DNA of 64,000 bases from a virus (Duplodnaviria > Heunggongvirae > Uroviricota > Caudoviricetes). Positions 11,667 to 56,173 of the stretch are shown here, piece by piece. The notes beneath the pieces are model-generated. The model did not search any database and was not told where the DNA came from. It saw nothing but the letters and a program-made list of their open reading frames with translations. Both the position numbers and the translations under genes were made by a program. Position 1 is the first letter of the stretch. Each line of letters starts with the position of its first letter. Location: positions 1 to 64,000 of IMG/VR virus record IMGVR_UViG_3300023174_000136; one strand, written 5' to 3'.

Positions 11667-11670
11667 TTTA

Positions 11671-11931: not shown

Positions 11932-12102
11932 GTTAATTTTACCTTCAAGTATATTTACTCATTGAAATTTATGCCTCTTACATATTTGAATACTCAATTC
12001 ATCGTGAATATCACTCATCTCATCGTTAAAAGATGTAAATTTGCACAATATTTGTATATAATAAAATTTCACTGACGCTAACTATTACTTCATAAAGGAA
12101 AA

Positions 12103-12273: not shown

Positions 12274-12329
12274 AGCTATTTTAATAATGCACACACAGAC
12301 ACTAAACCCAAACAAAGGAGGACAGCGAT

Positions 12330-18660: not shown

Positions 18661-18713
18661 ATAACATAGACTGGTTTTTACCTTAACGTCTTGTGTCCTT
18701 ATTAGGAGTTGCT

Positions 18714-21700: not shown

Positions 21701-22109
21701 ACAGAGCTTCAATACAAGTACACTCGTTGCAAATGCGGTATCGGCAACTACAGCTTCATTTGCAACAACATCTGGTTATGTGCCTAGCTATCAAACAACT
21801 GCGTCAATTACAAATAATGTGCTAACCATAAATCTAACAACAAGTACACTATTTAATGTCAATATGACTGCGGCTATAAACACAGTGACTATAACAAATG
21901 TTGCTGCATCTGGAACAATTTCCAGCTTTATACTAGCACTAAATAATCAAGGATCAGTGTATTCAGTAGTTTGGCCTACATCATTTAGATGGTCCGGAGG
22001 CACTGCGCCAACACTAACTGGTACATTGAATAAAAAAGATGTTATTGTTGCATACACAGATGACAGTGGATCTAACTATTATGCATTTGTTTCAGGAAAT
22101 AATTTATAA
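18714..22109 (+). CDS. large tail fibre with three arrays of a 27-aa (81-bp) tandem repeat
   Basis: AGGAG RBS before ATG 18714. The track's TTG at 18693 is in the same frame. The unit FNTSTLVANAVSATTSNYATTSGFAQS occurs 13 or more times. The N-terminus, LKRSSVSGKVPTAADLAYGELALNYTDGKLYFK, is fibre-like. Confidence 0.7.
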   Translation: MPDLPIYLKRSSVSGKVPTAADLAYGELALNYTDGKLYFKLSNDVIHQIPDRANNDLRYLLQAGGTMTGTLVINELTIANSTMSGALQVRGGLGVGGSIYASDVYSNGLKIEAFNTSTLVAQSVSATTSNFATTSGFAQSFNTSTLVANAVSASTSNYATTSGFAQSFNTSTLVANAVSATTASFATTSGYAESFNTSTLVANAVSATTASFATTSGYAESFNTSTLVANAVSATTSNYATTSGYAQSFNTSTLVANAVSATTSNYATTSGYAESFNTATLVSNAVTAQSLGTGIINIHNATSSSYYGDGALIVAGGVGIANGLNVYGNTNITGNLSVSGSITGTNISVTVNQVTATSGVFFGDDTGAGALYAGIPGYTPFGQTMFQAAGNFNDYMEINVQNINPGTKNSTDIVASADNVGFNNSFIDMGITGSGWDGSQHYSFGTVLNPNDGYLLVGHNTVDNRGSLVIGTTTSGTNIKFVVAATNASSSLTQVTSESVAMSINPAGTLAISTTTGALVVVGGVGISDSLHAGNIYSNGILLQNFSTSTLVANAVSATTSNYATTSGFAQSFNTSTLVANAVSATTSNYATTSGFAQSFNTSTLVANAVSATTSNYATTSGFAQSFNTSTLVANAVSATNFTSGRIDGRLVLSPGANSTSAWTTNGVALIQSSATYTDLTSSGTVAATYVNLFGAPTVAATNTTTYTEAYNTYFKSPVAGTNTAITSAYALGADSLSVNGSVGVPLGGAGLIFSVGSSQSNSTIRIGGASQTGELTFGRSTVSQTTYIQASANTSGTIKTINFGTSGLTNSNTLLNIGPVLGTGTFAVNAGTVVTIANTASSNSTTTGALQVVGGVGVGGNLNVGGVITATNIYVGTWPVSTGSGGGGLSSVAIQYNGASIGSATTINFATGTTATVTGSVVTLQVLSVNTASFATTSGFAQSFNTSTLVANAVSASTSNYATTSGFAQSFNTSTLVANAVSASTSNYATTSGFAQSFNTSTLVANAVSATTASFATTSGYVPSYQTTASITNNVLTINLTTSTLFNVNMTAAINTVTITNVAASGTISSFILALNNQGSVYSVVWPTSFRWSGGTAPTLTGTLNKKDVIVAYTDDSGSNYYAFVSGNNL
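19053..19590 (+). repeat. 81-bp coding tandem repeat array 1 (about 6.5 copies)
   Basis: Repeated DNA and peptide units are visible. Copies differ at a few codons (SNY/ASF, FAQ/YAE). Confidence 0.8.
20347..20640 (+). repeat. 81-bp coding tandem repeat array 2 (about 3.5 copies, nearly identical DNA)
   Basis: The unit tttaatac...gcaaatgcagtatcagcaacaacgtcaaactacgcaacaactagtggatttgcacagagc is repeated almost exactly. Confidence 0.8.
21507..21790 (+). repeat. 81-bp coding tandem repeat array 3 (about 3.5 copies)
   Basis: Same unit, with SAS/SAT variants. Confidence 0.8.
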
Positions 22110-22591
22110 TGAGTAATTGGGCTTATGTTGAAAATAATCAAGTAACTGATCTTTATTATGATCTGCCAACTAATTGGCGCAACATCAGTAACTTTTTTAC
22201 TCTTGCGGATAATCTTGCGTTTTTGCAAACATTCGGCTGGTATCCTGTTGAAAAAGTAACTCCAAGTTTTAATTCATCTACCCAAGAATTATCTGCGCCA
22301 AGATTTGAAATTACAGATGACAAAGTTTTAGAAATTAGAGATATCATTGATCTTCCTGTTATTCCCCAAGAAGTATTGTTGAATCAACAATGGAATGTGA
22401 TAAAAGCCGAACGCGATCAATTGATGATACAAAATGATTGGAGATATGCTCGAAACTCGCGAGAAATTAGACTAGGTTTGACTCCTACTGAAACTTTAGA
22501 AACAATAGATAATTATATGCAAGCATTAGCAGACATTACTAAACAAACAGATCCATTTAATATAATATGGCCAACATATAACGGAGTATAA
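22109..22591 (+). CDS. hypothetical protein, possibly a fibre assembly/chaperone protein by position
   Basis: TAATG-coupled to the fibre gene. 160 aa. I recognise no motif. Confidence 0.45.
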   Translation: MSNWAYVENNQVTDLYYDLPTNWRNISNFFTLADNLAFLQTFGWYPVEKVTPSFNSSTQELSAPRFEITDDKVLEIRDIIDLPVIPQEVLLNQQWNVIKAERDQLMIQNDWRYARNSREIRLGLTPTETLETIDNYMQALADITKQTDPFNIIWPTYNGV

Positions 22592-22592
22592 T

Positions 22593-25500
22593 ATGCCATT
22601 CTTATTAGAAAAATGGTTATTGACAATTGCACAACAACAAACTTCAGTAACTCCAGTAACTTCTGGATATCTTTATCAAGGTGGTATTAATGCTAATCTT
22701 ACTCAAATTGGAGTAAGTTCCTGGTCTCAGGTTTCATCAGGTTATGCAGACGATAATACCTATGTTCTTCAAGATTCCACGGCTAAAATTACAGTCTTTT
22801 CTACTAGTAATTCTTGGGGACAACTGGGATCAGGAGTCACTGGATCTAGTGGAGGAACTAGTTATCAGCATTCTGGGTCTTGGAAAACTGTTAGCACGGA
22901 TGGAAATTCTGTTATAGGTATAAAAACAGATGGTACATTGTGGGTCTGGGGAAAAAATGACATAGGTCAATTGGGCCTTGTTAATGTAGTTACACTTTCT
23001 AAAGTATCTCCTAGTGGCGATCATACTCTTGGAATTGATCCATTAGGAAAATTATATGCATGGGGAAGAAATCATGTAGGTCAATTAGGTGTTAATAACA
23101 CTACACTACAACCAAATATTCCTACATTAATAGATTCAGGATCTTGGATTCAAGTATCAGCTAGTCTCGGTAATTTTAGTAGTGCAGCAATTCGCGGTGA
23201 TAATACTCTTTGGACATGGGGCGGTAATTCCAGTGCTCAATTAGGACATGGAGATACTGAATCTAAAAGTTCCCCTACGCAAATAGCAGGATCTTGGGCG
23301 CAGGTTTCCATGGGAACAAGTCACACACTGATGCTGAAAACAGATGGCACTGTTTGGGGGACAGGTGTTAATAATAAGGGACAACTAGGAACTTTATCAC
23401 AATCTTGGACTCAAGTTGCAATTGGAGCAAGCCACTCTCTTGCAATTAGCTCTAATGGAACACTCTGGGGATGGGGTTCTAATGGTTATTTACAAATTGG
23501 ATATAGTGTTGGTGGATTTTATAGAAGTCAGCCAGGTTTAGTAACATCAGGATCTTGGAAATCAGTTAGTGCTGGTGTTAGCTATAGTTTGGCGATTGAT
23601 AGCAATGGACTTCTTTATGCCTGGGGCGATAATTTATGGGGACAATTAGGTACAGGAACAAGTGATGATCAGTATTCCACTCCTCAGTTAGTGTCTGGAG
23701 GCGGATCGTGGAAGATAGTATCTGCTACTGAAAGAGGCACGATAGCAATAAAAACAGATGGTACTCTTTGGGCCTGGGGGTATAATCAGCTGTTTAATCA
23801 ACTTGGTCTGAGTTTTACAGATAATTATTATTTAGTTCCTGCCAGACCTTCAAATTCCGCTGGAAGCTGGAATACAGTATCAGCTGGTTCTTCTCACACC
23901 TTGGCAATAAAATCAGATGGTACACTTTATGCCTGGGGTGATAATACTTATGGTCAATTAGGTAATCAACCTTCAGCAGCACTATCATGGTCGCAAATAG
24001 TTTTAGGTAATGCTCACACAGTTGCACTTAGGTCCGATGGAGCATTGTTTACTTGGGGCGCAAATACATACGGGCAGTTAGGTAATAGTAGCTCAACTGC
24101 GGCACAGTCGCCATTCAAAGTAGGATCAAGTTCTTGGGCATTTGTTTCCGCTGGAGCATCACACTCTGCTGCCATTGACATTAATGGATCTCTTTACTTA
24201 TGGGGTCTTAATACTGGTGGCAGACTTGGCGACGGTACAGTAGTATCAAGATCGTCGCCGGTTCAAGTATCGGGTGGTGGAGTTTGGACTCGCGTGGCAT
24301 GTGGACTAACCCATACAACTGCAATAAAATCTGGCGGACTATTATTTTCGTGGGGCGCAAATACTAGTGGTGTTTTAGGACTAGGTACATCAACTGCGGC
24401 TGCTTCAAGTCGTTCGACTCCTCAACAAATTGGTGCCAGTACTTGGTCATTTGTTTCATCTATAAATCTTCATGTTGCAGCTATAACTACTACTGGATTA
24501 CTATTTGCATGGGGCGACGGTGCCGATAGTAAAATTGGAGACGGATTTGCAGTGAACCGTTCATCTCCGGTTCAAGTAGGAACTGGATTTTCTTGGAAAA
24601 CAGCAAGTGCTGGAATAAACCACACGTCCGCAATAAGAACGGATGACACTTTATGGCTGTGGGGACTAGGAACCACTGGACAACTTGGTGATAATACAAG
24701 AGTTACAAAAGCTAGTCCTGTACAGGTTGCAGGCACAGGAACATGGGCCGCAACTGCATCAGGTAATAGTTATACAGTAGCAATCAAAACAGACGGATCA
24801 CTGTTTTCTTGGGGAGCTACGAGTCATATTTTAGGTGATGGCACTACTGTGAGTAGAAGCAGCCCAGTGCAGATTGCTTCATTCGCAGGAACATGGACGT
24901 CGGTTTCTGCAAACTTAAGCACTGCGGTTCTGGTAAACAACAATCGAAGTATTTGGGGATGGGGTGCAAACGCCTCGGGGCAGTTAGGTATTGGAGATAT
25001 TACTACCAGAAGTTCTCCGGTACAAATTGGTGCATCGTTTGCTACAGCAGGAGTTTCTCTAATTTCTTCTGCAACTAATTGGACCGCAGTCTCTGCCGGT
25101 CAATATCATTCTTTGGCCTTAAAATCAGATGGTACACTATGGGCTTGGGGGTCAGGAGTATATGGTCAGTTAGGTCAAGGTAATATTACTTCTTATGCCA
25201 GTCCCGTACAAGTTGTTGGTACATGGACAGCAATAGCAGTGGGAGTGAATCATTCATTGGCAATTAAAAATGATCTTAAAGTTTATGGATGGGGCAGAGG
25301 TGACCTTTATGCTCTTGGAGGCAGTTCTAACATATATACTCCTACTATACTCTACAATTCAACTAATTCAAATTCAATTGCAGCCGGAGGCAACAATTCT
25401 GCGTACTTGATTCCAGGAAATGATAACCTATATACCACGGGATTGAATACTCAAGGACAAAATGGATGGTTCAATACATTTGCTCCTTCTGGTACCGGAT

Positions 25501-28037
25501 TTTCACCGGTTACAAACATAACTGCATTTTCACTTAGTCCTAAACAAATATTGCCAACACAAAGTGGATTTTGGTCGAGTACAACTGCAACTGATATTTC
25601 TGCAGGTGGTTTACATAGTCTTGCCGTCATTTATAACACAAATCCGGATTCAGTTTATGCAATAGCATGGGGTGATAACACTTATGGGCAGTTAGGAAGA
25701 GGAAGTGTAGGATCGCTCGGCTTTGGTCAGGAGGCTACTCCGAGTGTTATGCTAACTCCCGCTGTTGTAGCACTGTCTTATGTAGTGGCAGTTTCTGCTG
25801 GCGGACAACACTCGTTGGTTTTGGATAGATCTGGCAATCTGTCCTCAACGGGAAATAATAATTTTGGTCAATTGGGTACAACATTGTATTTTACAGCAAC
25901 TGGATATTGTAGACCAATGCTTTCGCCTGTAGTAGCGTGTAGTGCTGGATTTTATCACTCATTAGCAATAACATCTAATAGAACTGTATGGGCATGGGGC
26001 GAAAATAGTTATCGTCAAGTTGATAACACAGGAATCTCTCGTAGTTCTCCAGTTCAAGTTTCGGCCACATTATCTGCTAATTTTATTGCTGCTGGTAGCA
26101 TATCAACATTTATAATTCAAACTGCAACTAACACTTTGTTTGTAGCAGGTTATAATCTTTATGGACAATTAGGAATTGGTACAAATAACACCTTTTCTGC
26201 ACTTGTAAGTTCAAGACAAACAACCTTCACAAGCCCATTACAGCTTGGAACCGATATGTGGTCTGCTGTTTCATCAGGTTATTTGTATAATACCGCAATA
26301 AGATCAGATGGGTCGTTGTGGGCATGGGGTACTAATAGCACAGGACAACTTGGAGATATCACAACAGTCACACGCTCTAGTCCTGTTCAAATTGGCACAG
26401 GTGTTTCATGGAAAGCAGTTAGTGCAGGTTATGATCATACATTGGCAATCACTAGCCAAGGAACATTGTACACATGGGGTGATAATTCTAGTGGAAAATT
26501 AGGAACAGTGGACTTGGTAACTCGTTCATCACCTGTTGCTATTGGTGCAGGAACTTGGAATTCAGTAAGTGCTGGTAGAAGTCATAGTTTAGCCATAAAC
26601 AGTCAACGGCAGATGTTTGGGTGGGGATCATATGCTGGTGGAACATTAACGCAAAATTATTCATGGACACAGTCAGCCTCTGGATTATCTCATGCTGCTG
26701 CAATTAAAGCAGATAACACATTATGGCTATGGGGGAAAAATACTTACGGACAGCTTGGAGATTTAACAACAAACTCACGATCTAGTCCTGTTCAAGTTTC
26801 CGGCGGAGGTTTGTGGCAACAGGTTGCCACCGGCGCTTATAGTACTTTTGGCATTAAAACAGATGGAACTCTTTGGGCATGGGGCAGAAATACTCAGGGA
26901 GAACTAGGTACAAATAGCACTGTTAGTGCATCTAGTCCTGTTCAAGTTGCAGGCGGAGGATCTTGGAAAACTGTTGCCGGTAGCAGCAACAGTATTAGTT
27001 TTTTTACATATGGTATTAAAACAGATGGAACTCTTTGGGCATGGGGAGACAACAGTTATGGACAGCTTGGTAAAGGTGATACGATTGCTAGATCAAGTCC
27101 TGTACAAGTTGGCACTGCAACATCATGGTCAAAATTACAAGTAGGATCTTTTGGTCCCTGTGTTATTGACACTGCAGGAAGATTGTGGGTATGTGGATAT
27201 AATAATGACGGAGCGTTAGCACAAAATGATATAGCTGGTCGATCAACACTAGTGCAAGTTACCAGTGGCGCGGTGTCATGGACAACAGTTTCAGCTTCTT
27301 TTGGCGTTTTAGCAATTGATGTTGCTGGTAACTTGTGGGGATGGGGATATAATATATATGGTTCATTGGGAATAGGCGACCAGACGCGCAGAAGCACTCC
27401 TGTACAAGTTACCGCAGTTGCATCTACATGGACCGACGTTGCTTTTATAGGCCATCCTTCTAAGGGTAATAGACAGAGTGCAATAGGAATTGCAGGCAAT
27501 CAAATGTATGGCTGGGGATTTTCAGTCCTTGCTAATACATTAAATATTAACCTTACTCCTGTTACAAATGGATTAAGTGGATTATCATGGAAACCATTGC
27601 CATCTATGAATAGTGTAGCAACATTAATCACACAACGAGGACAACTATGGACATGGGGCTACAATGGACAGGGAAATTTAGGAATAGGAACAACAGATTT
27701 TTATAGTAGCTATTATGGTTATTATGAAATACAACGCGCTTCTTTGCCAATGGACGCAGTATCAGCATATTCTCTAGTCGCAAGATCTAGTCCTGTGCAA
27801 GTCGGTTCGAGTAATCAATGGCAGTCAGCATTTGCCGGAAACAATTTTAATTTAGCAATTAATAATAATGCACTCTATGGGTGGGGATTAAATAACACTA
27901 ATGCAAGCATATCTGGTAGCTTGAGTAATCCTGCTTTCCTTGGTCTACCAGATACATATATTGCTGATCCACAGTTACTTGCAACAACAGCAACATCGGC
28001 ATCGGCAAAGAATCTAACATACATATTAAAGAATTGA
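22593..28037 (+). CDS. giant RCC1-repeat (beta-propeller) protein, 1814 aa
   Basis: About 30 repeats of the RCC1-like signature ...G.LW.WG.N.YGQLG.G....SSPVQV... run throughout. RBS ACGGAG. Confidence 0.75.
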   Translation: MPFLLEKWLLTIAQQQTSVTPVTSGYLYQGGINANLTQIGVSSWSQVSSGYADDNTYVLQDSTAKITVFSTSNSWGQLGSGVTGSSGGTSYQHSGSWKTVSTDGNSVIGIKTDGTLWVWGKNDIGQLGLVNVVTLSKVSPSGDHTLGIDPLGKLYAWGRNHVGQLGVNNTTLQPNIPTLIDSGSWIQVSASLGNFSSAAIRGDNTLWTWGGNSSAQLGHGDTESKSSPTQIAGSWAQVSMGTSHTLMLKTDGTVWGTGVNNKGQLGTLSQSWTQVAIGASHSLAISSNGTLWGWGSNGYLQIGYSVGGFYRSQPGLVTSGSWKSVSAGVSYSLAIDSNGLLYAWGDNLWGQLGTGTSDDQYSTPQLVSGGGSWKIVSATERGTIAIKTDGTLWAWGYNQLFNQLGLSFTDNYYLVPARPSNSAGSWNTVSAGSSHTLAIKSDGTLYAWGDNTYGQLGNQPSAALSWSQIVLGNAHTVALRSDGALFTWGANTYGQLGNSSSTAAQSPFKVGSSSWAFVSAGASHSAAIDINGSLYLWGLNTGGRLGDGTVVSRSSPVQVSGGGVWTRVACGLTHTTAIKSGGLLFSWGANTSGVLGLGTSTAAASSRSTPQQIGASTWSFVSSINLHVAAITTTGLLFAWGDGADSKIGDGFAVNRSSPVQVGTGFSWKTASAGINHTSAIRTDDTLWLWGLGTTGQLGDNTRVTKASPVQVAGTGTWAATASGNSYTVAIKTDGSLFSWGATSHILGDGTTVSRSSPVQIASFAGTWTSVSANLSTAVLVNNNRSIWGWGANASGQLGIGDITTRSSPVQIGASFATAGVSLISSATNWTAVSAGQYHSLALKSDGTLWAWGSGVYGQLGQGNITSYASPVQVVGTWTAIAVGVNHSLAIKNDLKVYGWGRGDLYALGGSSNIYTPTILYNSTNSNSIAAGGNNSAYLIPGNDNLYTTGLNTQGQNGWFNTFAPSGTGFSPVTNITAFSLSPKQILPTQSGFWSSTTATDISAGGLHSLAVIYNTNPDSVYAIAWGDNTYGQLGRGSVGSLGFGQEATPSVMLTPAVVALSYVVAVSAGGQHSLVLDRSGNLSSTGNNNFGQLGTTLYFTATGYCRPMLSPVVACSAGFYHSLAITSNRTVWAWGENSYRQVDNTGISRSSPVQVSATLSANFIAAGSISTFIIQTATNTLFVAGYNLYGQLGIGTNNTFSALVSSRQTTFTSPLQLGTDMWSAVSSGYLYNTAIRSDGSLWAWGTNSTGQLGDITTVTRSSPVQIGTGVSWKAVSAGYDHTLAITSQGTLYTWGDNSSGKLGTVDLVTRSSPVAIGAGTWNSVSAGRSHSLAINSQRQMFGWGSYAGGTLTQNYSWTQSASGLSHAAAIKADNTLWLWGKNTYGQLGDLTTNSRSSPVQVSGGGLWQQVATGAYSTFGIKTDGTLWAWGRNTQGELGTNSTVSASSPVQVAGGGSWKTVAGSSNSISFFTYGIKTDGTLWAWGDNSYGQLGKGDTIARSSPVQVGTATSWSKLQVGSFGPCVIDTAGRLWVCGYNNDGALAQNDIAGRSTLVQVTSGAVSWTTVSASFGVLAIDVAGNLWGWGYNIYGSLGIGDQTRRSTPVQVTAVASTWTDVAFIGHPSKGNRQSAIGIAGNQMYGWGFSVLANTLNINLTPVTNGLSGLSWKPLPSMNSVATLITQRGQLWTWGYNGQGNLGIGTTDFYSSYYGYYEIQRASLPMDAVSAYSLVARSSPVQVGSSNQWQSAFAGNNFNLAINNNALYGWGLNNTNASISGSLSNPAFLGLPDTYIADPQLLATTATSASAKNLTYILKN

Positions 28038-28045
28038 AGGTAAAA

Positions 28046-29770
28046 ATGCACGAAATTGATAAAATGCTACAACTACAGCTTGTTGGAGAACACCAAGCTG
28101 CCAAAGAACTTTCAGACCGATTAGAAAATATTGGTAAAGATCAGATTCTAGATCCTAATGGCAAAAATACCGAGGATATTTGGTTTAGGCACTGCTTTAA
28201 TCGAGGATGGTTCAAACTACAGGAAGGCGAATATCAAGAGGGAAGCCAACTATTAGAGTATGGTAGATTTCTTCAAGTCTATGGTAGTCCTCCATTAAAA
28301 ACCACTAAGCCTATCTATAATCCTGATCAACATGATCTTGAGGGTCGATCTTTAATTATTAGTCTTGAAGGCGGGTTTGGTGACGAAATTATCCATGCAA
28401 GATTTGCAACATCATTTAAGAAAAAAGGCGCCAAAAAGGTTTATATAGCTGCTGCTCCAGAGTTAGTAAGTTTGCTTGAACGTATCGAAGGAGTCGATGG
28501 AGTAATACTCAGAGATCAAGCAGATACAATAGAACATGATTATTGGTTACCGGGATTTAGTGCTGGTTGGTTAGCAGGATACAATTACGATACACTGCCT
28601 AGTGATCCATACCTAAATGCAAATCCAGGCAGTCAGCAAATTTGGAAAAGCATCATTAATAGCGACAAGATAAAAGTTGGTATAAGATGGGCAGGAAATC
28701 CTAAATTTGAACATCAGCAGTTCAGAAGATTTCCTGAAGAATTTATAATCAATTTGTCCAAATACAAGGAACTGCAACTCTATAGTTTTCAAAAAGATTT
28801 CAATACAGTCAATTTGCCTGAAAATGTCGTAGATTTAAATAATCTGTTGATCAGCTGGGAAGATACTGCTGCTGCAATTTCATGTTTAGATATTGTCATT
28901 ACCAGTTGCACCAGTGTTGCTCATCTATCAGCTGCATTAGGCAAAGAAACTTGGGTATTAACTCCGATCTTGCCATATCATACTTGGACTTATCAATGTC
29001 CTGAATCTAACACTTCACCATACTATAAATCAATCACGCTTTATCGTCAACGCACTCCAGGAAAATGGAATGATTGTTTTCAACAACTATACAAGGATAT
29101 CGAGCAGCGATTCAATTTAGAACACATAGATTTGCCCGATCAAGATAAAACTTATCAAAAATTAAATCTTGGATGTGGTGTTAAACATGCTTCGGGATTT
29201 ATTAATGTTGATCGATCTCAGATTTTTTCACCAGACGAGTGTGTTGATCTAGAAGTGTTTCCGTGGCCATGGGCAGATAATTCAATTGATCACATTATAG
29301 CCAAGGATGTGCTTGAACATCTTGGTGATACTTCACAAGATTTTATAAACATAATAAAAGAAATGTATAGAGTCAGTGCAAATGGAGCACTCTGGGAAAT
29401 TCAGGTCCCTCACTGGAGATCCGATAACGCACTAGGCGATCTCACGCATAAACAAATAATAACCAAAAATACATTCCAATTATTTGATCGACAATATGCC
29501 TATGACAAATTGAAAAGCGGGTACAGTGAATCATTATTGGCATTTGAGCATGACATAGATTTAATGATTTGCGGCACAGAATTTGACTATGCCAAAAACT
29601 GGCAAGATAGAATTGCTAAAAATCAAATTTCTGTCGAAGAGCTTGAATATGCTTTAAATACATTTAATAATGTTGCGATTTCAACCAGACTTTTAATTCA
29701 AGTCCATAAGCCTGGTAGATTTAACAACAACGAATTGATGGCATTAATTGATGATTTGCAGAGACCTTAA
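28046..29770 (+). CDS. bifunctional glycosyltransferase family 9 (heptosyltransferase-like) plus class I SAM-dependent methyltransferase
   Basis: The N-terminal half has GT9-like EGGFGDEII...DIVITSCTSVAHLSAALGKETWVL. The C-terminal half has methyltransferase motif I LNLGCGVKHASGFINVD and IIAKDVLEHL. ATG 28046 follows GAAGG. The track's TTG at 28034 is in the same frame. Confidence 0.6.
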   Translation: MHEIDKMLQLQLVGEHQAAKELSDRLENIGKDQILDPNGKNTEDIWFRHCFNRGWFKLQEGEYQEGSQLLEYGRFLQVYGSPPLKTTKPIYNPDQHDLEGRSLIISLEGGFGDEIIHARFATSFKKKGAKKVYIAAAPELVSLLERIEGVDGVILRDQADTIEHDYWLPGFSAGWLAGYNYDTLPSDPYLNANPGSQQIWKSIINSDKIKVGIRWAGNPKFEHQQFRRFPEEFIINLSKYKELQLYSFQKDFNTVNLPENVVDLNNLLISWEDTAAAISCLDIVITSCTSVAHLSAALGKETWVLTPILPYHTWTYQCPESNTSPYYKSITLYRQRTPGKWNDCFQQLYKDIEQRFNLEHIDLPDQDKTYQKLNLGCGVKHASGFINVDRSQIFSPDECVDLEVFPWPWADNSIDHIIAKDVLEHLGDTSQDFINIIKEMYRVSANGALWEIQVPHWRSDNALGDLTHKQIITKNTFQLFDRQYAYDKLKSGYSESLLAFEHDIDLMICGTEFDYAKNWQDRIAKNQISVEELEYALNTFNNVAISTRLLIQVHKPGRFNNNELMALIDDLQRP

Positions 29771-30464
29771 TTTACATTACAGTCATAATACAAAAGTTGA
29801 AAAAGCATATATCATAACAGTAACCGATAATAGCAAGAGTCAACAATACTCACAACGGTGCCAGGCAAGCTGCGATAGGGTTGGCATGCCATGGCAAACA
29901 TGGGAAGCTTACAACGGATACAACAATCCTATAACGGTTCCTGGACATGCAACCAATCATGCTGTTATGAATATATTAAAAGTTACCGATCACTATTTGA
30001 CCCGAGGTGAAGTTGCTTGCGCACTCAGTCATATTAGTTTGTGGAGTCATTGTGCTACTATAGATCAGCCCATTGTTATTTTAGAGCACGATGCCGTTAT
30101 GATCCAAAGATTTGAAGAGCATAGTTCATTTAATTCCATTATCTATCTTGGTGGAGCAGAATGGGTAAAACATAACTGGCCAATATTAAATATACCTCCA
30201 CATGCAACAGAGGGTCCAAATTATCACTTTATTTGTCGAGCGCACGCTTATTCAATTGATCCTACTATGGCAAAAAATCTTTTAGCTCATGTGATTAAAC
30301 ATGGAATTTGTGCTCCTTTAGATATCATGTTAAGAGCTGATTTGTTTAATATCACGCATAATGGTGTTTTTGCCTACGATGACGGAGATGCTGCCCTGAC
30401 AACAATTGAAAATCGACCCGCTGAAGGCAGAACTACTAAACGCAATGACAGGCTAGAGTATTAA
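29748..30464 (+). CDS. glycosyltransferase family 25 (LPS/LOS beta-glycosyltransferase-like)
   Basis: GEVACALSHISLWSHCA...PIVILEHD matches the GT25 signature (GEiGCxLSHxxLW). Confidence 0.65.
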   Translation: MMICRDLNLHYSHNTKVEKAYIITVTDNSKSQQYSQRCQASCDRVGMPWQTWEAYNGYNNPITVPGHATNHAVMNILKVTDHYLTRGEVACALSHISLWSHCATIDQPIVILEHDAVMIQRFEEHSSFNSIIYLGGAEWVKHNWPILNIPPHATEGPNYHFICRAHAYSIDPTMAKNLLAHVIKHGICAPLDIMLRADLFNITHNGVFAYDDGDAALTTIENRPAEGRTTKRNDRLEY

Positions 30465-31072
30465 TGTATAAGTTTACTTGGGATTTTAATTTTAACAAAG
30501 AAGGTGGCGCAAAAGCAAATATTGCTGCACTGATCAATGAATTTGGCCTTCCAACAACTATTGTTGAAATAGGATCATACGAAGGATTAACTACTTTTTG
30601 GATGAATGATGAAATTGGACCGTTGAATCCTAATCTTAAAATTTATAGTATAGATCCGCATGGCGGAAGTATAGACATAAAAGACGATTTTAACACAGTT
30701 GCTGAAAATTTTCACCACAATATGCAGGTATGCGAAAATAATAAAATCACTCACCTTAATAAAAAAAGTGAGCATGGCCTCGTTGATTTAATAAATCAAA
30801 GAATAGAAGCTGAATTGATTTATATTGATGGTGATCACACTGCCGGTACTGTATTAACTGACCTAGTCTTATCGTGGCAAATATTGAAAAATGGCGGAGT
30901 TATACTCTGTGACGATACAGTGGTGTGGAAATACAAAGATAAAAACGGAGCCTGTTCTGCGCAAATGAGTCCTAGACTAGCGGTTGAAACATTCATTCAA
31001 TGCCATTGGCATGAACTTGAAATTTTGGCCTTGCCAAACAGTACTCAAACAGCATTTAGGAAAATTATATGA
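30464..31072 (+). CDS. class I SAM-dependent methyltransferase (CmcI/TylF-like, Methyltransf_24-type)
   Basis: TIVEIGSYEGLTTFW, IYSIDPHGG, LIYIDGDHTAGTVLTDL and NGGVILCDD are the motifs of this family. Confidence 0.6.
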   Translation: MYKFTWDFNFNKEGGAKANIAALINEFGLPTTIVEIGSYEGLTTFWMNDEIGPLNPNLKIYSIDPHGGSIDIKDDFNTVAENFHHNMQVCENNKITHLNKKSEHGLVDLINQRIEAELIYIDGDHTAGTVLTDLVLSWQILKNGGVILCDDTVVWKYKDKNGACSAQMSPRLAVETFIQCHWHELEILALPNSTQTAFRKII

Positions 31073-31863
31073 ACAAAATAGTTTTTACCGCAGGATTGCC
31101 AAGAGCCGGATCTACTCTTCTTGGCGCAATATTAAATCAAAATCCTAGATTTTCAGCAGGTATTACAAATCCCTTGGCACCATGTATTCGATCAGTAATT
31201 AAAGAAACCTCGACTAGACTAGGAAATAGACAAGTTTGCGATATTGAAACAAGAAAGCGCATGGTTAAATCTCTCATAGAAATGTATCATGAAGAGGACT
31301 CTGCTGAAGTAATTTTTAACCATAACCGTACTTGGCCACTGGCTTTGAACATTATCAAGGATATATATCCAGATGCAAAATTAATATTATTAGTTCGTGA
31401 CCTAGGATGGATATTAGATAGTTTTGAAGTTTTATTAAGAAAGAATCCCTATGTATATTCAAGATTATTTGATAATCTTGAGACGGATACAGTTTACGCT
31501 AGGTGTGAATCTCTTTTGAAAGAAAAAGGCACAGTTGGATTTGCCTATGATTGTGTTAAACAAGCAATGACAAGTGAATTTTCTGAAGATATTATGATCA
31601 TTGATTATGATTCTTTTGTGTCGAATCCCAAATTAGCAATTGAAAATTTATATAATTTCATTGATGAACCGCTATTTGAGCATGACTTTGAAAATGTTGA
31701 GAGTAGTTTTGACGAATATGATGAAGATTTAAGTGCTCCAGGATTACACACTGTAAAACGCAGAGTGGAGTTTGTTCCTAGAAAATCAATTATTCCTCCT
31801 GATATTTGGTTAAGTGTTGAGGGCAAAGAAGTTTGGAAAATTCAAAATTCAAAGAATAGCTAA
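31069..31863 (+). CDS. sulfotransferase (PAPS-dependent)
   Basis: FTAGLPRAGSTLLGAIL is the 5'-PSB P-loop. LLVRDLGWILDSF is a 3'-PB-like motif. Confidence 0.6.
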   Translation: MNKIVFTAGLPRAGSTLLGAILNQNPRFSAGITNPLAPCIRSVIKETSTRLGNRQVCDIETRKRMVKSLIEMYHEEDSAEVIFNHNRTWPLALNIIKDIYPDAKLILLVRDLGWILDSFEVLLRKNPYVYSRLFDNLETDTVYARCESLLKEKGTVGFAYDCVKQAMTSEFSEDIMIIDYDSFVSNPKLAIENLYNFIDEPLFEHDFENVESSFDEYDEDLSAPGLHTVKRRVEFVPRKSIIPPDIWLSVEGKEVWKIQNSKNS

Positions 31864-31893: not shown

Positions 31894-34800
31894 GTGTCCA
31901 AAATAAAACTACGTAGAGATCTAGCTGCCAACTGGGAAAGCATTAATCCTGTGTTATCCTCGGGAGAGCCTGGATTTGATTTAACATCTAAAAAATTAAA
32001 AATAGGCAATGGTATCACCGCATGGAACGGATTACCATATGTTTCTTCGGATAATACAGCTACTCCAGGACCACAGGGTCCACAAGGTATACAAGGTATA
32101 CAAGGATCAGAAGGACCTCCTGGACCACAAGGTATTCAAGGACCTCGAGGACTTCAAGGATCTCAGGGTGTTCGTGGCGTACAAGGAATACAAGGACTTC
32201 GCGGCTCAACCGGAACACAGGGTATTCAAGGACTACAAGGCGCACAAGGTGCGGCAGTAAGATTACTTGGCACTGTTACCGATTTTACATCATTGCCAGG
32301 ATCGGCCGAAATTGGCGACGGGTATATTACGGTTGATACTGGCGATCTTTGGTTTTGGGGAACAAATACACAATGGTATGACGTTGGTAGAATTGTTGGA
32401 CCCCAGGGCATTCAAGGAATCCAGGGTCCCGTAGGTCCACAAGGTCCACAAGGGTCCACGGGCACTCAAGGAATTCAAGGTATTGAAGGTCCTCAAGGCG
32501 AACAAGGTCCTCGAGGACTTCAAGGAAATACCGGAACTCAAGGCATTCAAGGTCCACAAGGACTTCAAGGACTTCAGGGTCTAGTAGGTCCCGGAGTTGC
32601 ATCTGGTGGAACTATTGGGCAAATATTAGTCAAAGCTAGTTCAAGTGATTACGATACCGCATGGTCAATACCATCAACCATAGCATTTACCGTTACTAAC
32701 ATAAGTTATTTTACAAATGATGTAGGATATATCACCTCAACTTCGTCATTGATAAATGGAACTGCAACTTTCTCTCTCAATACAGCCGGTACACTTACTT
32801 CGCCTGGATCTATTATTCCCGATACGGATTTATCATATGATTTGGGATCTACGTCTAGTCAATGGCGTAGTTTGTATGTAGGAACTGGCACTATCTATAT
32901 AGGCGGAGTAGCTCTAGGCGTTAACCAGGACAACTATGTCACAGTCGATGGTAATCCTATTATTACATTAAACACCGCCGGTAATATCACACTTCAGGGT
33001 AATAATATTGTTGGTACTGTTACTATATCAGACACGGCGCCTGTAGTCAACACAGGAACACAATGGTTTAATACTGTTGAAGGACGTACTTATATTGCTG
33101 CCAACGGTTTGTGGTTAGATTCTAACCCAACACAAATTCCAAGTCCGGAAACATATCTAGATGGATTGGCAATTGATGGTACCATTATTAGTACTGCTAA
33201 TGTTGACAGCGATGCTATTGTGGTAGATGGCGGGGATAATACAAAGTTATCTGTCAGCAACAATAGTGTAAAGATACAAACTCCCGGAGAGCAAACTCGT
33301 TCATTTTGGGTAGCAGAATACGGTGGTATAACCACCGCGACTACTACGTCTACATTTACTCTAGGCACCGGTGCTTTCTATGATAGTCTAGGCAATGTAT
33401 ATGTACTAGGAGCTATACAGTATGGTGACTTTAATTTTAACAATGTAGATAGTCTATTTTTAAAATATGACACTAATGGTAATTTACTATGGCATAGGAC
33501 ATGGCATGATGATGGAGGCTATAATTGTGGCACCGTCAATCAAGCATTTGCAATAGACAGTAATGACCGTATCTATTGGCTTGCCACTGATGCTACTGGA
33601 TACAATTGTTGGACTGGTTATTTTGATACCGATGGAAATCTCGGGCTTGGCGGAACAGCCCAACAAAGTTTAGGATTTACCAACGGAAGCCTTTCTGCTA
33701 CCGATATAGCATGTGATAATTCTGGAAATTATTATATAGCAGGTTCTTACTATAATAGCAATGATACTCCGGTGGTGATTAAAATCGACGGAGACACTGG
33801 AAATGTAATTTGGAACGGTAATATAATACCTGAGGATTTTGAAGACCTTCCTAGTTTCGGACGATATCGTGCTGTAACTGTTAACCCGGTGTCTGGTGAT
33901 GTTTGGGCCATAGGTGATTACGACGACGATGGCGGTTTATATGCCATGCTATCTAAGTGGGACATCAACGGTACACATCAATGGACCAAAAAATTAGTTA
34001 CTCAAACCGGGGATATAGCGTCTGCGGTAATATTTAACAGTGGTTTTGTTTATACCATAGTAAACGATGACGGCGAACAAAAAGCGGTGGTGTCTAAATT
34101 TGACACAGATGGAGTTTTGATATGGGCTTCAGATCTGGCAGTAGGAGCGGTAGATCCTATTGCGAATTACTTGGAGAACTCGGGCGCATACGATTTAAGT
34201 TTTGATGCCAATGGCAATGTCTATGTAACTGGAATAATACCATCTATTAGTAGCACTAATCAGTTGTGGATAACAAAACTTGATCCTTCTAATGGTGAAA
34301 TGTTATACAGTCGTATGCTAGGAACACAATCGGGAGTAGCTATTATTGATGGATCTACCTATGGATTTAACAATGCTATTGGACACAGGGTAGGCGATAT
34401 CTATGAAGATAAAATTGCTGTTACTGCCATAACTCCCTCAGATATTAATGACAGTACTAGTACTAACGAAATAAGAATAATAGTAGCGCAACTGCCTATT
34501 GATGGTAGTATTGTTGGCACATTTGATAATGTAAGTATACTTGACATTACAAATGACTTGAACAGTATCTGTTCAACCGGTACATATACTGTAACCACCT
34601 TAATGTGGTCAACCTCTACCGCAGAAACACTACAATCAACCAGTACATTAGGCATTAGTTATGTTACTGATATAATTGGACTATCTGGCGAAACAATTTC
34701 TTTAGACAGTGTCAGTAGATCTTCTACCGTAACCAACACTTGGACATTTGTCAACAATAATATCATACTACCACCAGGTGGTGATATCCTTAACAGCAAT

Positions 34801-36777
34801 GGAGTTAGTGTGCTGGGCGCTACTAATGGCACCGCAGCAAATGGTTGGCAAATAACTTCTGGTACCTACAATGTATCTGTAGCCGATACAGGCGTTGTTA
34901 CAATGGCAACAAGTCGTGGAAATATAGAGTTTGGCGCATTGCCAGAATGTATCGGCGGAGTAAGTCACTTTCATATTATGAAGGCAGTAGATTCTGATGC
35001 CGTAGATTTATACTTTGGTGATGACTACAACTATGTACTACAGCGTGGTAATTCTGCATCTGAACTAGCTGGAAATACAAACGATTACGGTGTTGAAATT
35101 GGCACTAGGGATTTAAGTACCGAAACTAGCACCCAACATGTCTGGCGTTTTGGCACAGATGGTGTCTTAACATTAAGCACAGCCAGTACAATCCTAGGTA
35201 ATAACAATGATCCTAATATCTACATCGAAACTGCCACAACCAGTACAACCAGTACATGGACATTTGGCACCGACGGTTTACTAACACTGCCTGCGGCTAC
35301 TCCTATAATTCGAGGTGGTGGTACAGGTACGGATGTTACAGTAATTGCCACAACTGGTACAAACACAGCAACCTGGACATTTGCCGCAGATGGTAGTATT
35401 AATGTAGGACAAGCACAAGGTTTTATAGTTCGCACCATGACCGGTGCTAACGCAAGCCCTAGCAACTATGTATCTACATTTGAATTTGGGGTAGACGGTA
35501 CATTAATATTGCCTCAAGGTAGTGTTATAGGTGAAATAAACAACACCACAGTTATTACACCTCCTGGGGCACTGGCAGGCCAGGGATTGGCTATTAGAAC
35601 AACCGCAGGTGGCGGACTGCAAAGCGCCAACACATTCACTCCGGGTGGCACAATAATAGTGACATTCGTTGATAATGGTGCACACTTTAGTGATAGCCAA
35701 ATCAGCGGCGAAAGCAATACCTGGACCTATACTATTACAGGAATATCTCAAGCAGATTTAGGTAGTCCGTTGACTGGTGTATTCTTGGGTGAAAATTGGA
35801 CTATTGTTAACAGTACTAATGTTAATACAGCAACATTTAACATTCCTGCCCTAAGTAACGGAACAGGATTTACAATCACACTAGATAAAATAATGACCCA
35901 GCCTCCATTCAATCTTGGCACTAGTGTTATATTAGATAGCAATGGTCGTAATAGTCTCACCATTGGATCTGTTCCTGAAATAAGTCATGTACACTTGACA
36001 TCTGTTGATCCTTCAACCGTTGACCTATTTCTAGGCGATGATGATCAATATGTTAAGATTGAAAAGAATCACGGTGATGTTGTTATTGGCACTGGTATGA
36101 TAGGTGTTCCAATCGGCTTGGACAGTTGGAGCGGAGAGGGTGGATGGGACTCCACTCCCTACATCAATACAGCCACAACAGGTGGCTCAGGTACAGGTTT
36201 GACAGTAAATGTTAATTCTTCCAACGGTGGATACATTGATATCAATTCCATTACTATAGCTAATCCTGGCACAGGATATACCGTTGGCGATGTTATAACC
36301 ATTAACAATGAAAACGATCTTCCTGGTACATTTACAATCAGTACTGTTACTAATTATTCAAACAATTGGACCTTTAGCAACACCGGTACAGTAACATTCC
36401 CAGATGCCACCGTTCAACACACAGCATATCCTACTGGGCAACAGACTGTTCTTGTTAATGCGGCATCAACTAGCACGGCGATAGAGTTAATGGAACTAAC
36501 AGGATCAGTAGTAATGATATACCCAGAGACTGGTTACGATACGCCAAATGAACTACACGCAATAGTTCTACCATTCGACAATCTTGGACTTAATCCAATT
36601 ATTGCTGTAGGAACACGCATTACAGTTATTAATCAGTATACTGGATCTGTTGATATTACTGGTTGGTCAGGTGGGCCATACACTATGCAAGAGTATGAAA
36701 GTTTAGAGTTAATTTATACATATAATCCAGACTATAATGGAAATATGTGGTGGTTAATTAACTCATATATTTGGTAA
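31894..36777 (+). CDS. collagen-like tail fibre (1627 aa) with a conserved fibre N-terminal domain, two Gly-X-Y blocks and a long beta-rich shaft
   Basis: GTG start after ATGGAG. The N-terminus, [47 protein letters not shown], is shared with the 38510 and 51780 proteins. [22 protein letters not shown]... is a collagen-like repeat. Confidence 0.8.
   Translation: [1627 protein letters not shown]
32059..32257 (+). repeat. collagen-like Gly-X-Y coding repeat block 1 (about 22 triplets)
   Basis: [61 protein letters not shown]. Confidence 0.85.
32398..32593 (+). repeat. collagen-like Gly-X-Y coding repeat block 2 (about 21 triplets)
   Basis: [66 protein letters not shown]. Confidence 0.85.
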
Positions 36778-36781
36778 TAAA

Positions 36782-37537
36782 ATGTCAATAACTATTAAAT
36801 CAGCACAAACTATCAGCAACGGTGTTACATTACGAGGTAACAATACTCAATATGTAATACCAGCTGTCCCAGATAGACTATTTGAACTAGATGCCAGCAT
36901 CTACGAATCGGGTGCCACTTGGTTAGATCAGTCAGGTAATGATAGACACGCTACATTACATGGTACAGTTCCTTACTACACTGATTCAGTGGGTGGATAT
37001 TTTGGTTTTACAGGCCAAGGTGTCAATTACATTGATATAGCAGGTAGTGAGTCGGGTTGGGGTATAGCAGATAATATACCACCTAATGCCACACTCAGCA
37101 TATGGGCAAACATCAATCAAATCTCTTTTTATCAACATGTTGCAGGCTGGCGCGGCGGTTACTTTCATTTTTATTTTTTAATGCTGGCCAACCAACTGAG
37201 TAATATAACAGAAGCAAGAGTTGTAAATTCTGTGGGTAGTTATGATATAACCATACCTTACAATGCTTATTTTAATACCTGGGCTTATATAACATTCGTA
37301 GCCGACAGCAATACTGGACAATCAATACTTTATATTAACTCTACTCAAATAGGAACGGCTAATATTGGCAGTGATAATTGGGTCAATACTAATATACCAT
37401 TTAGGATAGGCAGTGCTGACGGAGGAGACTTTCCCTTAAACGGTTATATTGGTGGAGTAACGGCCTACAGCCGAGCACTTACACAGCAGGAAGTCACTAG
37501 TGAGTTTAACAGAACTAAAACAAGGTACGGACTATGA
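36782..37537 (+). CDS. LamG/concanavalin-A-like lectin-domain protein (fibre tip/adhesin candidate), paralog 1
   Basis: The C-terminus GYIGGVTAYSRALTQQEVTSEFN resembles the Laminin_G_3 end motif (...IYNRALSxxEI...). It is a tandem paralog of the next gene. Confidence 0.5.
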   Translation: MSITIKSAQTISNGVTLRGNNTQYVIPAVPDRLFELDASIYESGATWLDQSGNDRHATLHGTVPYYTDSVGGYFGFTGQGVNYIDIAGSESGWGIADNIPPNATLSIWANINQISFYQHVAGWRGGYFHFYFLMLANQLSNITEARVVNSVGSYDITIPYNAYFNTWAYITFVADSNTGQSILYINSTQIGTANIGSDNWVNTNIPFRIGSADGGDFPLNGYIGGVTAYSRALTQQEVTSEFNRTKTRYGL

Positions 37538-38274: not shown

Positions 38275-38290
38275 ACGAGTAAATAAAGAC

Positions 38291-38497
38291 ATGACAGCAA
38301 TAACATTTCCAACAAACCCTATAATAGGACAATCGTATGTGGCTACTAACGCTGTAACCTATACATGGACGGGTGATCGATGGTCATCTAGTCAGGCGAT
38401 CGGTAGTAATCAAGCAAAATATTATGTGGAGGGTGGCGATTCTGCATGGACCTACACTACAGCAACAGACATCACCCTAGATGGTGGAACAGCATAA
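38291..38497 (+). CDS. small structural-like protein
   Basis: An ATG in the same frame as the track's ORF 38246..38497, chosen because it avoids overlapping the upstream gene. The peptide is Thr/Gly/Tyr-rich. Confidence 0.35.
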   Translation: MTAITFPTNPIIGQSYVATNAVTYTWTGDRWSSSQAIGSNQAKYYVEGGDSAWTYTTATDITLDGGTA

Positions 38498-38509
38498 TCG
38501 GAGTATACA

Positions 38510-56162: not shown

Positions 56163-56173
56163 GGATAAAAATA

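Follow-up and report, generated by a model that had tools for sequence, protein, structure and literature searches.

A GT9-like glycosyltransferase-methyltransferase gene next to a giant RCC1-repeat gene in phages and bacteria: a candidate decoration system for host-recognition proteins

In a window of 64,000 nucleotides of a tailed phage genome (IMG/VR record IMGVR_UViG_3300023174_000136, positions 1 to 64,000) four genes, A to D, coding for glycosyltransferases, methyltransferases and a sulfotransferase lie between the gene of a giant RCC1-repeat protein and that of a collagen-like fibre protein. We propose, with a probability of roughly 0.5, that these enzymes modify the phage's own host-recognition proteins, the RCC1-repeat giant being the main target and the collagen-like fibre perhaps a second one.

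The island spans positions 28046-31863. Genes A (28046-29770, 574 aa), B (29751-30464, 237 aa), C (30464-31072, 202 aa) and D (31069-31863, 264 aa) are all on the + strand and overlap or abut each other. A and B overlap by 20 nt, B and C have the sequence TAATG in common and C and D the sequence ATGA, in agreement with the consecutive arrangement described in the original prediction. Neighbouring structural genes, also on the + strand, overlap or adjoin the island, in line with the structural-gene context given there. Only 8 nt separate the stop codon of the RCC1 gene (22593..28037, + strand) from the start codon of A. Its product, a beta-propeller protein of 1814 aa (PF25390, E 3e-294), contains 23 RCC1 repeats and consists to 24% of Ser and Thr. 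It is preceded by the gene of a tail-fibre assembly chaperone (22109..22591, + strand; Pfam Phage_tail_APC, E 7.7e-8), whose homologues lie 5′ of the RCC1 gene in many related loci; the chaperone is a marker of the fibre module and is mentioned for context only. On the other side, D is separated by a 30-nt gap containing GGAG from the gene of the collagen-like fibre (31894..36777, + strand, 1627 aa), which comprises Mtd_N (Pfam, E 5.7e-14), two collagen stretches (Pfam Collagen, E 5e-17) and beta-propeller-like repeats. Across the scanned fibre region promoter-like sites were not in excess and terminator-like sites were in weak excess (16 found vs 10.9 ± 3.4 expected). No TM-like segment was found in A-D, and the 64-kb window contains neither heptose synthesis nor PAPS synthesis genes. 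In T4-like aquatic phages, hyperplastic regions next to structural genes are places where accessory genes gather, and position alone is therefore weak evidence.

Protein A consists of a helical (TPR-like) region at aa 1-75, a GT9-like GT-B glycosyltransferase domain at about aa 95-360 and a class I SAM methyltransferase domain at about aa 365-574. The helical region, as judged only from predicted helices and from one public annotation as "tetratricopeptide repeat protein", measures about 75 aa in A and at least 150 aa in paralogues. LPS heptosyltransferases are not known to have such an extension. The C-terminal part is matched by Methyltransf_11 just above the cut-off (E 2.7e-4) and by phrog_6636, annotated as "methyltransferase" (E 2.5e-16). 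For the glycosyltransferase domain the assignment comes from the GT-B fold, which is nearest to GT9 enzymes, among them the protein O-heptosyltransferase TibC. A search of A against Pfam/NCBIfam profiles at E<=0.1 left GT9 (PF01075, Glyco_transf_9) unmatched, no GT9 enzyme was matched among the PDB sequences with either the single sequence or a profile, and hhalign against WaaC and WaaF gave E values of 0.016 and 0.005 over only 40-44 columns. Of the predicted GT9-methyltransferase fusion, the methyltransferase is thus supported by profile and the GT9 part by fold, but not by the Pfam GT9 profile.

Residues G110, G112 and D113 of A are invariant across 17 diverse family members and are located at the start of the helix following the first strand of the domain. 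By pattern and topology, rather than by residue-level superposition, D113 would correspond to the catalytic Asp of GT9-type enzymes (WaaC D13, TibC D110; PMC4358343). The C-terminal nucleotide-sugar signature of GT9, D-(T/S)-G-x-x-H, is not found in A: WaaC D261-T-G-L-S-H aligns to C288-T-S-V-A-H, and throughout the A family a near-invariant Cys replaces the Asp and the His is kept. Given this Cys and the missing Pfam GT9 match, the donor of A could be other than ADP-heptose. The A family is large: its metagenomic members form 1846 clusters at 90% identity.

The identification of B as a GT25-family (GT-A) glycosyltransferase proved correct, with Glyco_transf_25 (PF01755) matching at E 3.2e-15 and 57.0 bits (cut-off 24) over profile positions 5-188 of 199; weak PDB matches are GT25 proteins as well. 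The acceptors of GT25 enzymes, and of many sulfotransferases, are LPS or other glycans. C is a class I SAM methyltransferase of the Methyltransf_24 family (PF13578, E 8.3e-17, 62.4 bits vs cut-off 26.3), but the more specific CmcI/TylF-like label proposed earlier does not hold for CmcI, whose model PF04989 gave 18.7 bits and stays below the cut-off of 23.2. The weak PHROG matches of C are annotated "DNA methyltransferase", and phage glycosyltransferases often glucosylate DNA, which together could suggest that the enzymes decorate phage DNA bases against restriction. We give hardly any credence to such a hypermodification, since GT9-like, GT25 and TPST-like folds are without precedent on DNA, the genes are part of the fibre module and not of a nucleotide-metabolism module, and the cassette also accompanies RCC1 proteins bearing Tat-type signals in Bdellovibrio (see below).

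D was matched by Sulfotransfer_3 (PF13469; E 9.9e-16, 59.1 bits vs cut-off 27) and Sulfotransfer_1 (PF00685; E 2.5e-9, 37.3 bits vs cut-off 22). Its PRAGST loop occupies aa 11-16. In 40 homologues P11, R12, G14 and T16 of the 5′-PSB loop and R110 and S118 of the 3′-PB motif are invariant and D111 is nearly so, which confirms the predicted PAPS-type sulfotransferase. By sequence and by fold the nearest relatives of D are the tyrosylprotein sulfotransferases (TPST), a group with RaxST as a bacterial representative. Sulfate may therefore just as plausibly go directly to protein as to a glycan, and the original prediction is right about the sulfotransferase but too narrow in naming a glycan as acceptor. 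D differs from TPST1/2 in the catalytic base, which we take to be the Glu in the G-E-E stretch after the PSB loop: in a phmmer alignment C-G-E-E-T of TPST1 corresponds to A-G-I-T-N of D, the catalytic Glu falling on Ile/Thr, and the consensus of the D family at the G-E-E stretch is S-I-S-G. D-like genes occur in 7 of 80 related viral loci; among 71 genome loci, 18 have one no more than 8 kb from an A-like gene. They are also found in other T4-like phages beside RCC1 proteins and Peptidase_S74 fibres, at times with an APS kinase.

A comparison of related loci showed which genes belong together. Among 80 IMG/VR loci with an A homologue an RCC1 gene is present within 5 kb in 72; the distance is no more than 300 nt in 63 loci, and in 70 the RCC1 gene lies upstream on the same strand. 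RCC1-like proteins are rare in 50,697 phage records, being present in seven, and the four of these which are not from Clostridioides phages are exactly the four records with an A-like domain. Two cultured Synechococcus phages, BUCT-ZZ01 and S-SRM01, carry the A-RCC1 pair. In 63 of the 80 viral loci B lies on one side of A or the other at a distance of up to 8 kb; C is present in 31, in the order B-C or C-B. The complete block recurs identically on a 334-kb metagenome contig and, with 69-91% identity and the same gene order, on a 166-kb contig. The four genes are nonetheless not a fixed unit, a correction to the original prediction: the conserved core consists of RCC1 and A, with B frequent and C and D accessory. 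It is the RCC1 protein, and not the collagen-like fibre, that accompanies the enzymes from locus to locus. No relative lacking the genes with its fibres unchanged was found among the related loci, and where C or D is missing, the fibre genes on either side have likewise diverged strongly or been replaced.

The cassette is not confined to phages. In 43 of 67 evaluable GTDB genome loci the A homologue has an RCC1 gene no more than 5 kb away, in variable order and strand, though many of these loci are MAG contigs that may be mis-binned phage DNA; this does not apply to two complete Bdellovibrio chromosomes and to long contigs of 0.8 and 2.8 Mb. On the chromosome of Bdellovibrio bacteriovorus Bd16 an A-like gene is followed by a separate gene for a 188-aa homologue of the methyltransferase domain and then by two genes for RCC1 proteins, each about 1080 aa long, all between housekeeping flanks. 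The two domains fused in A are thus separate genes in Bdellovibrio. Both RCC1 proteins have an N-terminal twin-arginine motif (SRRAFL) which, recognised by eye, reads as a probable Tat export signal. Tat substrates are folded in the cytoplasm before export, and a cytoplasmic modification would therefore be possible.

Downstream of A the gene content varies strongly among relatives, including GT2-like genes, other methyltransferases, Glf and heptose genes. Such variability, together with the rarity of D-like genes, would be expected if a hyperplastic spot had gathered unrelated metabolic genes without a common substrate. This we consider very unlikely. The variable genes are no random mix but nearly all code for glycan- or group-transfer enzymes, and fusion and fission link the GT9-like domain with the methyltransferase and, in two loci (L018 and L087), a second A-like domain with the D-like sulfotransferase. 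In addition the pairing of A with RCC1 persists across phage-cell transfer.

Related islands also contain genes for nucleotide-sugar synthesis. A heptose-7-phosphate kinase (TIGR02198, E 1.6e-42) and a cupin are present in 25 of 78 related loci; 22 of these 25 also have an ADP-heptose 6-epimerase (TIGR02197, E 3e-62) and 16 a HAD phosphatase, and an rfaE-domain-II-like nucleotidyltransferase was seen in at least one. UDP-galactopyranose mutase is among the related-island genes too. An ADP-heptose pathway and this mutase would also suit a remodelling of the host envelope, in which the enzymes add sugars, methyl groups and sulfate to host LPS, capsule or exopolysaccharide and thereby block superinfection or the sticking of progeny to debris. 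The classical members of both GT9 and GT25 are LPS-core enzymes, and the glycosyltransferase, epimerase and sulfotransferase clusters annotated in the large T4-like cyanophages P-SSM2, S-SCSM1 and S-SCSM2R are usually read as host cell-wall or LPS modification (PMC12801897). Such remodelling is a serious but unlikely explanation: it leaves unexplained why A goes together with RCC1 in viral loci as well as bacterial chromosomes and is found in exactly the RCC1-bearing phage isolates, and why the Bdellovibrio cassette has no LPS genes in its surroundings; the N-terminal helical region of A and the closeness of D to protein-tyrosine sulfotransferases also speak against it. The original prediction had left the choice between virion and host glycan undecided. 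Because A is coupled to the RCC1-repeat gene in phages and bacteria alike, we favour the virion as the probable target.

A conserved neighbourhood indicates functional coupling without giving its direction. The RCC1 protein might therefore be a partner and not the substrate, acting as lectin, scaffold or carrier for a methylated or sulfated glycoconjugate, or the enzymes might modify a fibre component docking on it; the collagen-like fibre is encoded directly 3′ of D both here and in a relative of 70% identity (L007). We regard this as quite unlikely, because the known GT9-like enzymes encoded beside large repeat proteins (TibC/TibA, AAH/AIDA-I) modify that very neighbour (PMC4358343), and the related islands showed no gene for a lipid carrier, a flippase or a polymerase.

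Under our preferred reading, modification of the phage's own recognition proteins, A-D would be soluble cytoplasmic enzymes acting before virion assembly. The GT9-like domain of A would first place a sugar on side chains of the RCC1 protein, probably heptose from ADP-heptose by analogy with TibC and AAH and their adjacent adhesins, a donor indirectly supported by the heptose genes of related islands, with the helical repeats of A helping to recognise the acceptor. The fused methyltransferase domain would then methylate this sugar, B would lengthen the glycan and C would add another methyl group. Finally D would transfer sulfate from PAPS to the glycan, or directly to a tyrosine or other residue. 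Gene anatomy, enzyme folds, the conserved neighbourhood and the fusions and fissions are observed; the acceptor, the donor sugar, this order of steps and the presence of the RCC1 protein in the virion we infer. Points against this reading, besides the Cys of A and its missing Pfam GT9 match, are the lack of heptose and PAPS synthesis genes in the window, the loss of the TPST catalytic Glu in D and the LPS or glycan acceptors usual for GT25 enzymes and many sulfotransferases.

More generally, and with somewhat less than even confidence, we suggest that we are dealing with a previously undescribed decoration system for RCC1-type beta-propeller proteins, with a divergent GT9-like (probably heptosyl-) transferase and a methyltransferase as core and a TPST-like sulfotransferase and further glycosyltransferases in some genomes, used on the fibres of T4-like aquatic phages and on the RCC1 proteins with Tat-type signals of Bdellovibrio. 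If this is true, host- and prey-recognition proteins are glycosylated, methylated and sulfated, and these would be the first sulfated phage virion proteins. Phage recognition proteins would then hold chemical information invisible in the protein sequence, with consequences for adsorption, for host-range prediction and for recognition by grazers or immune systems. Substrate-adjacent protein heptosylation, so far a matter of a few enterobacterial adhesins, would extend to a very abundant family and a new substrate class. The Bdellovibrio cassette hints at a recognition chemistry common to phages and predatory bacteria, and the many giant RCC1-repeat genes of aquatic phages would be offered a testable function.

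Several known systems resemble parts of this one. The T4-like cyanophage clusters likewise assemble GT25, other glycosyltransferases, epimerases and sulfotransferases in aquatic myoviruses (PMC12801897). Sulfation of bacterial collagen-like and tail-collar proteins has been predicted from hydroxylase-sulfotransferase operons (PMC2938197), which differ in that a 2OG-dioxygenase is absent from island A-D. Neither report describes the GT9-like/methyltransferase/RCC1 cassette or its occurrence in bacteria; the earlier notion of an undescribed system may apply to this cassette, but not to glycosyltransferase and sulfotransferase clusters as such, which were already annotated in cyanophages (PMC12801897). 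Virion glycosylation has been demonstrated experimentally for mycobacteriophages (Freeman et al. 2023, Cell Host Microbe; PMC10527164, cited in PMC12801897), whose glycosyltransferases are also phage-encoded near structural genes; virion decoration in our case is proposed from the genes. There the glycosyltransferase families, the hosts and the targets (capsid, tail tube) are others, and neither a methyltransferase fusion nor a sulfotransferase appears. The chlorovirus PBCV-1 protein A064R is a GT-GT-MT protein (PMC9614988), and A064R and the fibril glycosylation of giant viruses (PMC9614988, PMC5408694) share with our system virus-encoded cytoplasmic multi-domain glycosyltransferases and methyltransferases and methylated glycans on structural proteins. 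A comparable 918-aa GT1-MT-GT2 fusion adjoins sulfotransferase and RCC1 genes in the loci L093/L094. The eukaryotic systems differ in belonging to eukaryotic viruses, in their glycosyltransferase families and in having capsid instead of fibre targets. From the LPS heptosyltransferases WaaC and WaaF (CAZy GT9, PF01075) A is set apart by the profile and signature differences described above and by an island without LPS-core gene context. The BAHT enzymes (TibC, AAH; PMC4358343, PDB 4RAP) have no detectable sequence-profile match to A, TibC lacks the N-terminal helical repeats and the fused methyltransferase, and their neighbour is a beta-helix autotransporter instead of an RCC1 beta-propeller. 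A nevertheless resembles them in a gene adjoining that of a huge surface protein rich in repeats and beta-structure, here the putative substrate RCC1, perhaps in the invariant Asp, which by pattern and topology would occupy the place of the catalytic base, and in the proposed action in the cytoplasm before export or assembly.

The four genes A to D lie on the plus strand at 28046-31863 without internal gaps between their open reading frames: A at 28046-29770 (574 aa), B at 29751-30464 (237 aa), C at 30464-31072 (202 aa) and D at 31069-31863 (264 aa). The start of A lies 8 nt beyond the upstream stop codon, 20 nt are common to A and B, TAATG is shared at the B/C junction and ATGA at the C/D junction, and 30 nt separate the end of D from the following gene, which is preceded by a GGAG. 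No membrane-like hydrophobic segments were found in the four proteins. Scans of the fibre region were indecisive as to transcription: sigma-70-type promoter sites showed no excess, terminator-like sites a weak one (16 found versus 10.9 ± 3.4 expected), and the T4 late-promoter motif TATAAATA occurred at chance frequency and not at all from 15.7 to 44.6 kb.

The structural setting proposed for the block in the original prediction is borne out. Upstream there are a fibre-like protein of 1138 aa, a tail-fibre assembly chaperone (PF16778) and the RCC1 giant (22593-28037, plus strand), a protein of 1814 aa with over 20 RCC1 repeats (PF25390, E 3e-294). Downstream follow a fibre of 1627 aa with Mtd_N and collagen domains (31894-36777), two LamG/concanavalin-like paralogues (36782-37537 and 37534-38274) and a second Mtd_N fibre protein (38510-40339). 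With fibre-type genes on both sides, the block thus sits inside a fibre module. Taking the collagen-like fibre together with 36782-40339, no fewer than four different genes for fibres or adhesins stand in succession. The phage affinities across the window form a mosaic: for the fibre-module genes (18693-31863) the freshwater Synechococcus phages BUCT-ZZ01 and S-SRM01 are nearest, while for NrdA (53844-57274) the nearest (60%) are Xanthomonas phage BUDD together with myoviruses of Ralstonia and Stenotrophomonas. A related contig has a T4-like terminase, to which phages of Methylophilales, Pelagibacter and cyanobacteria are about equally close. A cyanophage identity of the window was not confirmed.

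Pfam searches recovered the families that had been named for three of the genes. B belongs to Glyco_transf_25 (E 3.2e-15), C to Methyltransf_24 (E 8.3e-17; a PDB sequence search with C gave noise only) and D is a sulfotransferase matching both Sulfotransfer_3 (E 9.9e-16) and Sulfotransfer_1 (E 2.5e-9). The GT25 family also takes in collagen galactosyltransferases. We considered that hydroxylysine in the neighbouring collagen-like fibre might be the target of B and dropped this idea because the collagen repeats have no lysine and no hydroxylase is present. In D, which has homologues in 517 clusters, the PAPS-binding motifs are invariant among the homologues and the TPST catalytic Glu is not kept, so that the acceptor could be a protein side chain or a glycan. 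That the block serves DNA modification is a very unlikely rival reading.

For A the picture is divided. The N-terminal two thirds had been called GT9, and of this the likeness in fold stands, recovered by structure comparison only, whereas Pfam, NCBIfam, PDB single-sequence and PDB profile searches gave no match for this part. The sole Pfam match of A is a borderline Methyltransf_11 (aa 395-447), and PHROGs assigns it to a 'methyltransferase' family (E 2.5e-16). Alignments by hhalign of the profile of the A N-domain with E. coli WaaC and WaaF were weak and local. G110, G112 and D113 are invariant in all 17 diverse family members compared, and by pattern and topology their G-D motif would correspond to the catalytic Asp in WaaC and TibC (PMC4358343); at the place of WaaC D261 in the C-terminal GT9 signature the family has a near-invariant Cys. 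In view of this exchange and of the searches lacking a GT9 match, A is GT9-like by fold, and its sequence does not demonstrate family membership. The family comprises 1846 clusters at 90% identity, nearly all members being about 575 aa long. A near-invariant loop of the GT9-like domain (NPKFEHQQ, residues 218-225, 28697-28720) is the lowest-confidence stretch of the predicted model (pLDDT below 50) and may be a mobile loop binding substrate or donor.

Looked for beside fibre genes of relatives, the complete block was found again on two metagenome contigs. A contig of 334 kb (ENA ERZ2680843 NODE_37) carries an identical copy, and on one of 166 kb the arrangement RCC1-A-B-C-D-collagen fibre is retained, the four enzymes being 69-91% identical; megablast with the island as query gave no match among 50,697 phage records. 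As a constant unit the block did not hold up. We fetched 80 IMG/VR loci with A homologues and mapped the proteins of the window onto them. An RCC1-like open reading frame lies within 5 kb of the A homologue in 72/80 of these loci, within 300 nt in 63/80, and upstream on the same strand in 70/80. Within 8 kb, B accompanies A in 63 of the 80 loci, C in 31 (in either order relative to B) and a D-like gene in only 7. From these counts, A to D are no fixed system, and the constant pair is RCC1 and A. The account of the block as a hyperplastic spot gathering unrelated genes has to be weighed against this constancy. The fibre chaperone gene, tried as another anchor for the census, yielded no IMG/VR relatives.

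The pairing was checked reciprocally by tblastn of the RCC1 giant against the same phage records (E<1e-10). Only 7 of the 50,697 contain a similar protein. Three of them, the Clostridioides phages CP067352.1, MF547662.1 and MF547663.1, have RCC1-domain proteins of about 25% identity and are the sole RCC1-bearing phage isolates lacking an A-like enzyme; the other four (BUCT-ZZ01, two records of S-SRM01 and marine virus AG-345-E08) are exactly the four with an A-like N-domain. AG-345-E08 has its genes arranged as RCC1, A-like, RCC1, sulfotransferase, GT25. The cultured S-SRM01 (L003, 12329-25159) has an expanded module that follows directly on the baseplate and long-tail-fibre genes; besides three RCC1 genes and the A-like TPR protein gp338 it encodes a 2OG-Fe(II) oxygenase and a sulfotransferase together with a beta-1,4-GT and a nucleotide-sugar epimerase.

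Scanning one genome of each GTDB species with the A N-domain profile gave 71 loci, among them two complete Bdellovibrio chromosomes as well as long Bdellovibrionales and Planctomycetota contigs; many of the others are MAG contigs and possibly phage DNA. An RCC1-like open reading frame was present within 5 kb, on either side and either strand, in 43 of the 67 evaluable loci, and a D-like sulfotransferase within 8 kb in 18 of the 71 loci. The cassette on the Bdellovibrio bacteriovorus Bd16 chromosome (L117, CP168971.1, 4827-16246) is flanked by housekeeping genes (DsbD-like, pseudouridine synthase, EamA). It encodes, in this order, a 1038-aa protein whose N-terminus is hydrophobic and, as judged by eye, signal-like, an A-like GT9-like protein of 336 aa, a separate 188-aa homologue of the A methyltransferase domain (MKLNLGCG...), and two RCC1 proteins, both about 1080 aa long and beginning with a twin-arginine SRRAFL, read by eye as a putative Tat export signal. 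Phage gene A is accordingly a fusion of two genes which adjoin each other in cells. The gene neighbourhoods show joint action of the GT9-like enzyme and its methyltransferase with RCC1-repeat proteins; less probably, the RCC1 protein would be a partner and not the substrate. The main rival holds that the enzymes remodel host LPS or capsule, the customary reading of such clusters in cyanophages (PMC12801897), but it leaves both the coupling to RCC1 and the Bdellovibrio cassette unexplained.

We clustered the open reading frames downstream of A in the related loci and scanned cluster representatives for families. These variable genes again point to glycan chemistry and include GT2-like enzymes, further methyltransferases and a UDP-galactopyranose mutase (E 5e-83). 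A 258-aa family without Pfam or NCBIfam match goes along with A in about 78 viral loci 53 times and is also found in a dozen genome loci (e.g., L059 at 11530-12306, and L097, L099 and L160 beside A-like genes); absent from the window, it has DDHS and EDDY motifs and may be a GT-A enzyme. Roughly 10-15 related loci have the A-like domain twice, the second time with longer helical repeats at its N-terminal side; the clustering put this paralogue together with sulfotransferases (cluster 7, 20 loci overall). An ADP-heptose set lies downstream of A in 25/78 related phage loci (e.g., L029 15768-17245, L027 14441-16000, L085 13470-17743), none of its genes being found within the window. Heptose-7-phosphate kinase (TIGR02198, E 1.6e-42) and a cupin occur in all 25, ADP-heptose 6-epimerase (TIGR02197, E 3e-62) in 22 and a HAD phosphatase in 16; L029 also has a nucleotidyltransferase resembling rfaE domain II. 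Heptose synthesis genes adjoining a GT9-fold enzyme support the reading of the A family as heptosyltransferases.

D-like genes in other T4-like aquatic phages adjoin, in the sampled contexts, RCC1-repeat genes and Peptidase_S74 fibres. One contig (L092, 7759-11375) has three tandem D-like sulfotransferases beside RCC1 genes, and an APS kinase, for PAPS supply, is encoded both there and on L090 (13164-13556), a further T4-like contig carrying D-like sulfotransferase. Genes for heme oxygenase and for bilin reductase on L092 suggest a cyanophage. Directly after a D-like sulfotransferase and RCC1 genes, L093/L094 (9774-12530) encode a 918-aa GT1-Methyltransf_23-GT2 protein resembling chlorovirus A064R in domain architecture. 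In L018 (4425-6212) and L087 (14489-16276) a 595-aa protein combines two parts: residues 1-225 are a D-like sulfotransferase 25% identical to D, and residues 263-593 are a second A-like domain, helical and GT9-like, with 33% identity to residues 1-362 of A. The fusion is a Rosetta-stone tie between the two activities.

The closest characterised parallel to A is TibC/AAH, GT9-fold enzymes which heptosylate, in the cytoplasm, large repeat adhesins encoded beside them (PMC4358343). From this parallel and the neighbourhood of A and RCC1 we propose, with a probability of about one half, that A to D modify the RCC1 giant. A would glycosylate it, probably with heptose, and then methylate that sugar, B would extend the glycan, C would methylate further and D would add sulfate; the collagen-like fibre is a possible second target. 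What the steps are, which molecule is the acceptor and that virions contain the RCC1 protein are our inferences. Full-text searches of incomplete coverage found no literature linking RCC1-repeat proteins to a heptosyltransferase and none on glycosylated RCC1 proteins of Bdellovibrio. Several elements have precedents: phage-encoded virion glycosylation in mycobacteriophages (as cited in PMC12801897), virus-encoded GT-methyltransferase fusions in chloroviruses (PMC9614988) and clusters of GT and sulfotransferase genes in large cyanophages (PMC12801897), and sulfation of bacterial collagen-like and tail-collar proteins was predicted in 2010 (PMC2938197). Compared with these systems, what is presumably new, within substrate-adjacent protein glycosylation, is the enzyme subfamily and the presumed class of substrate, with sulfation as an optional step.
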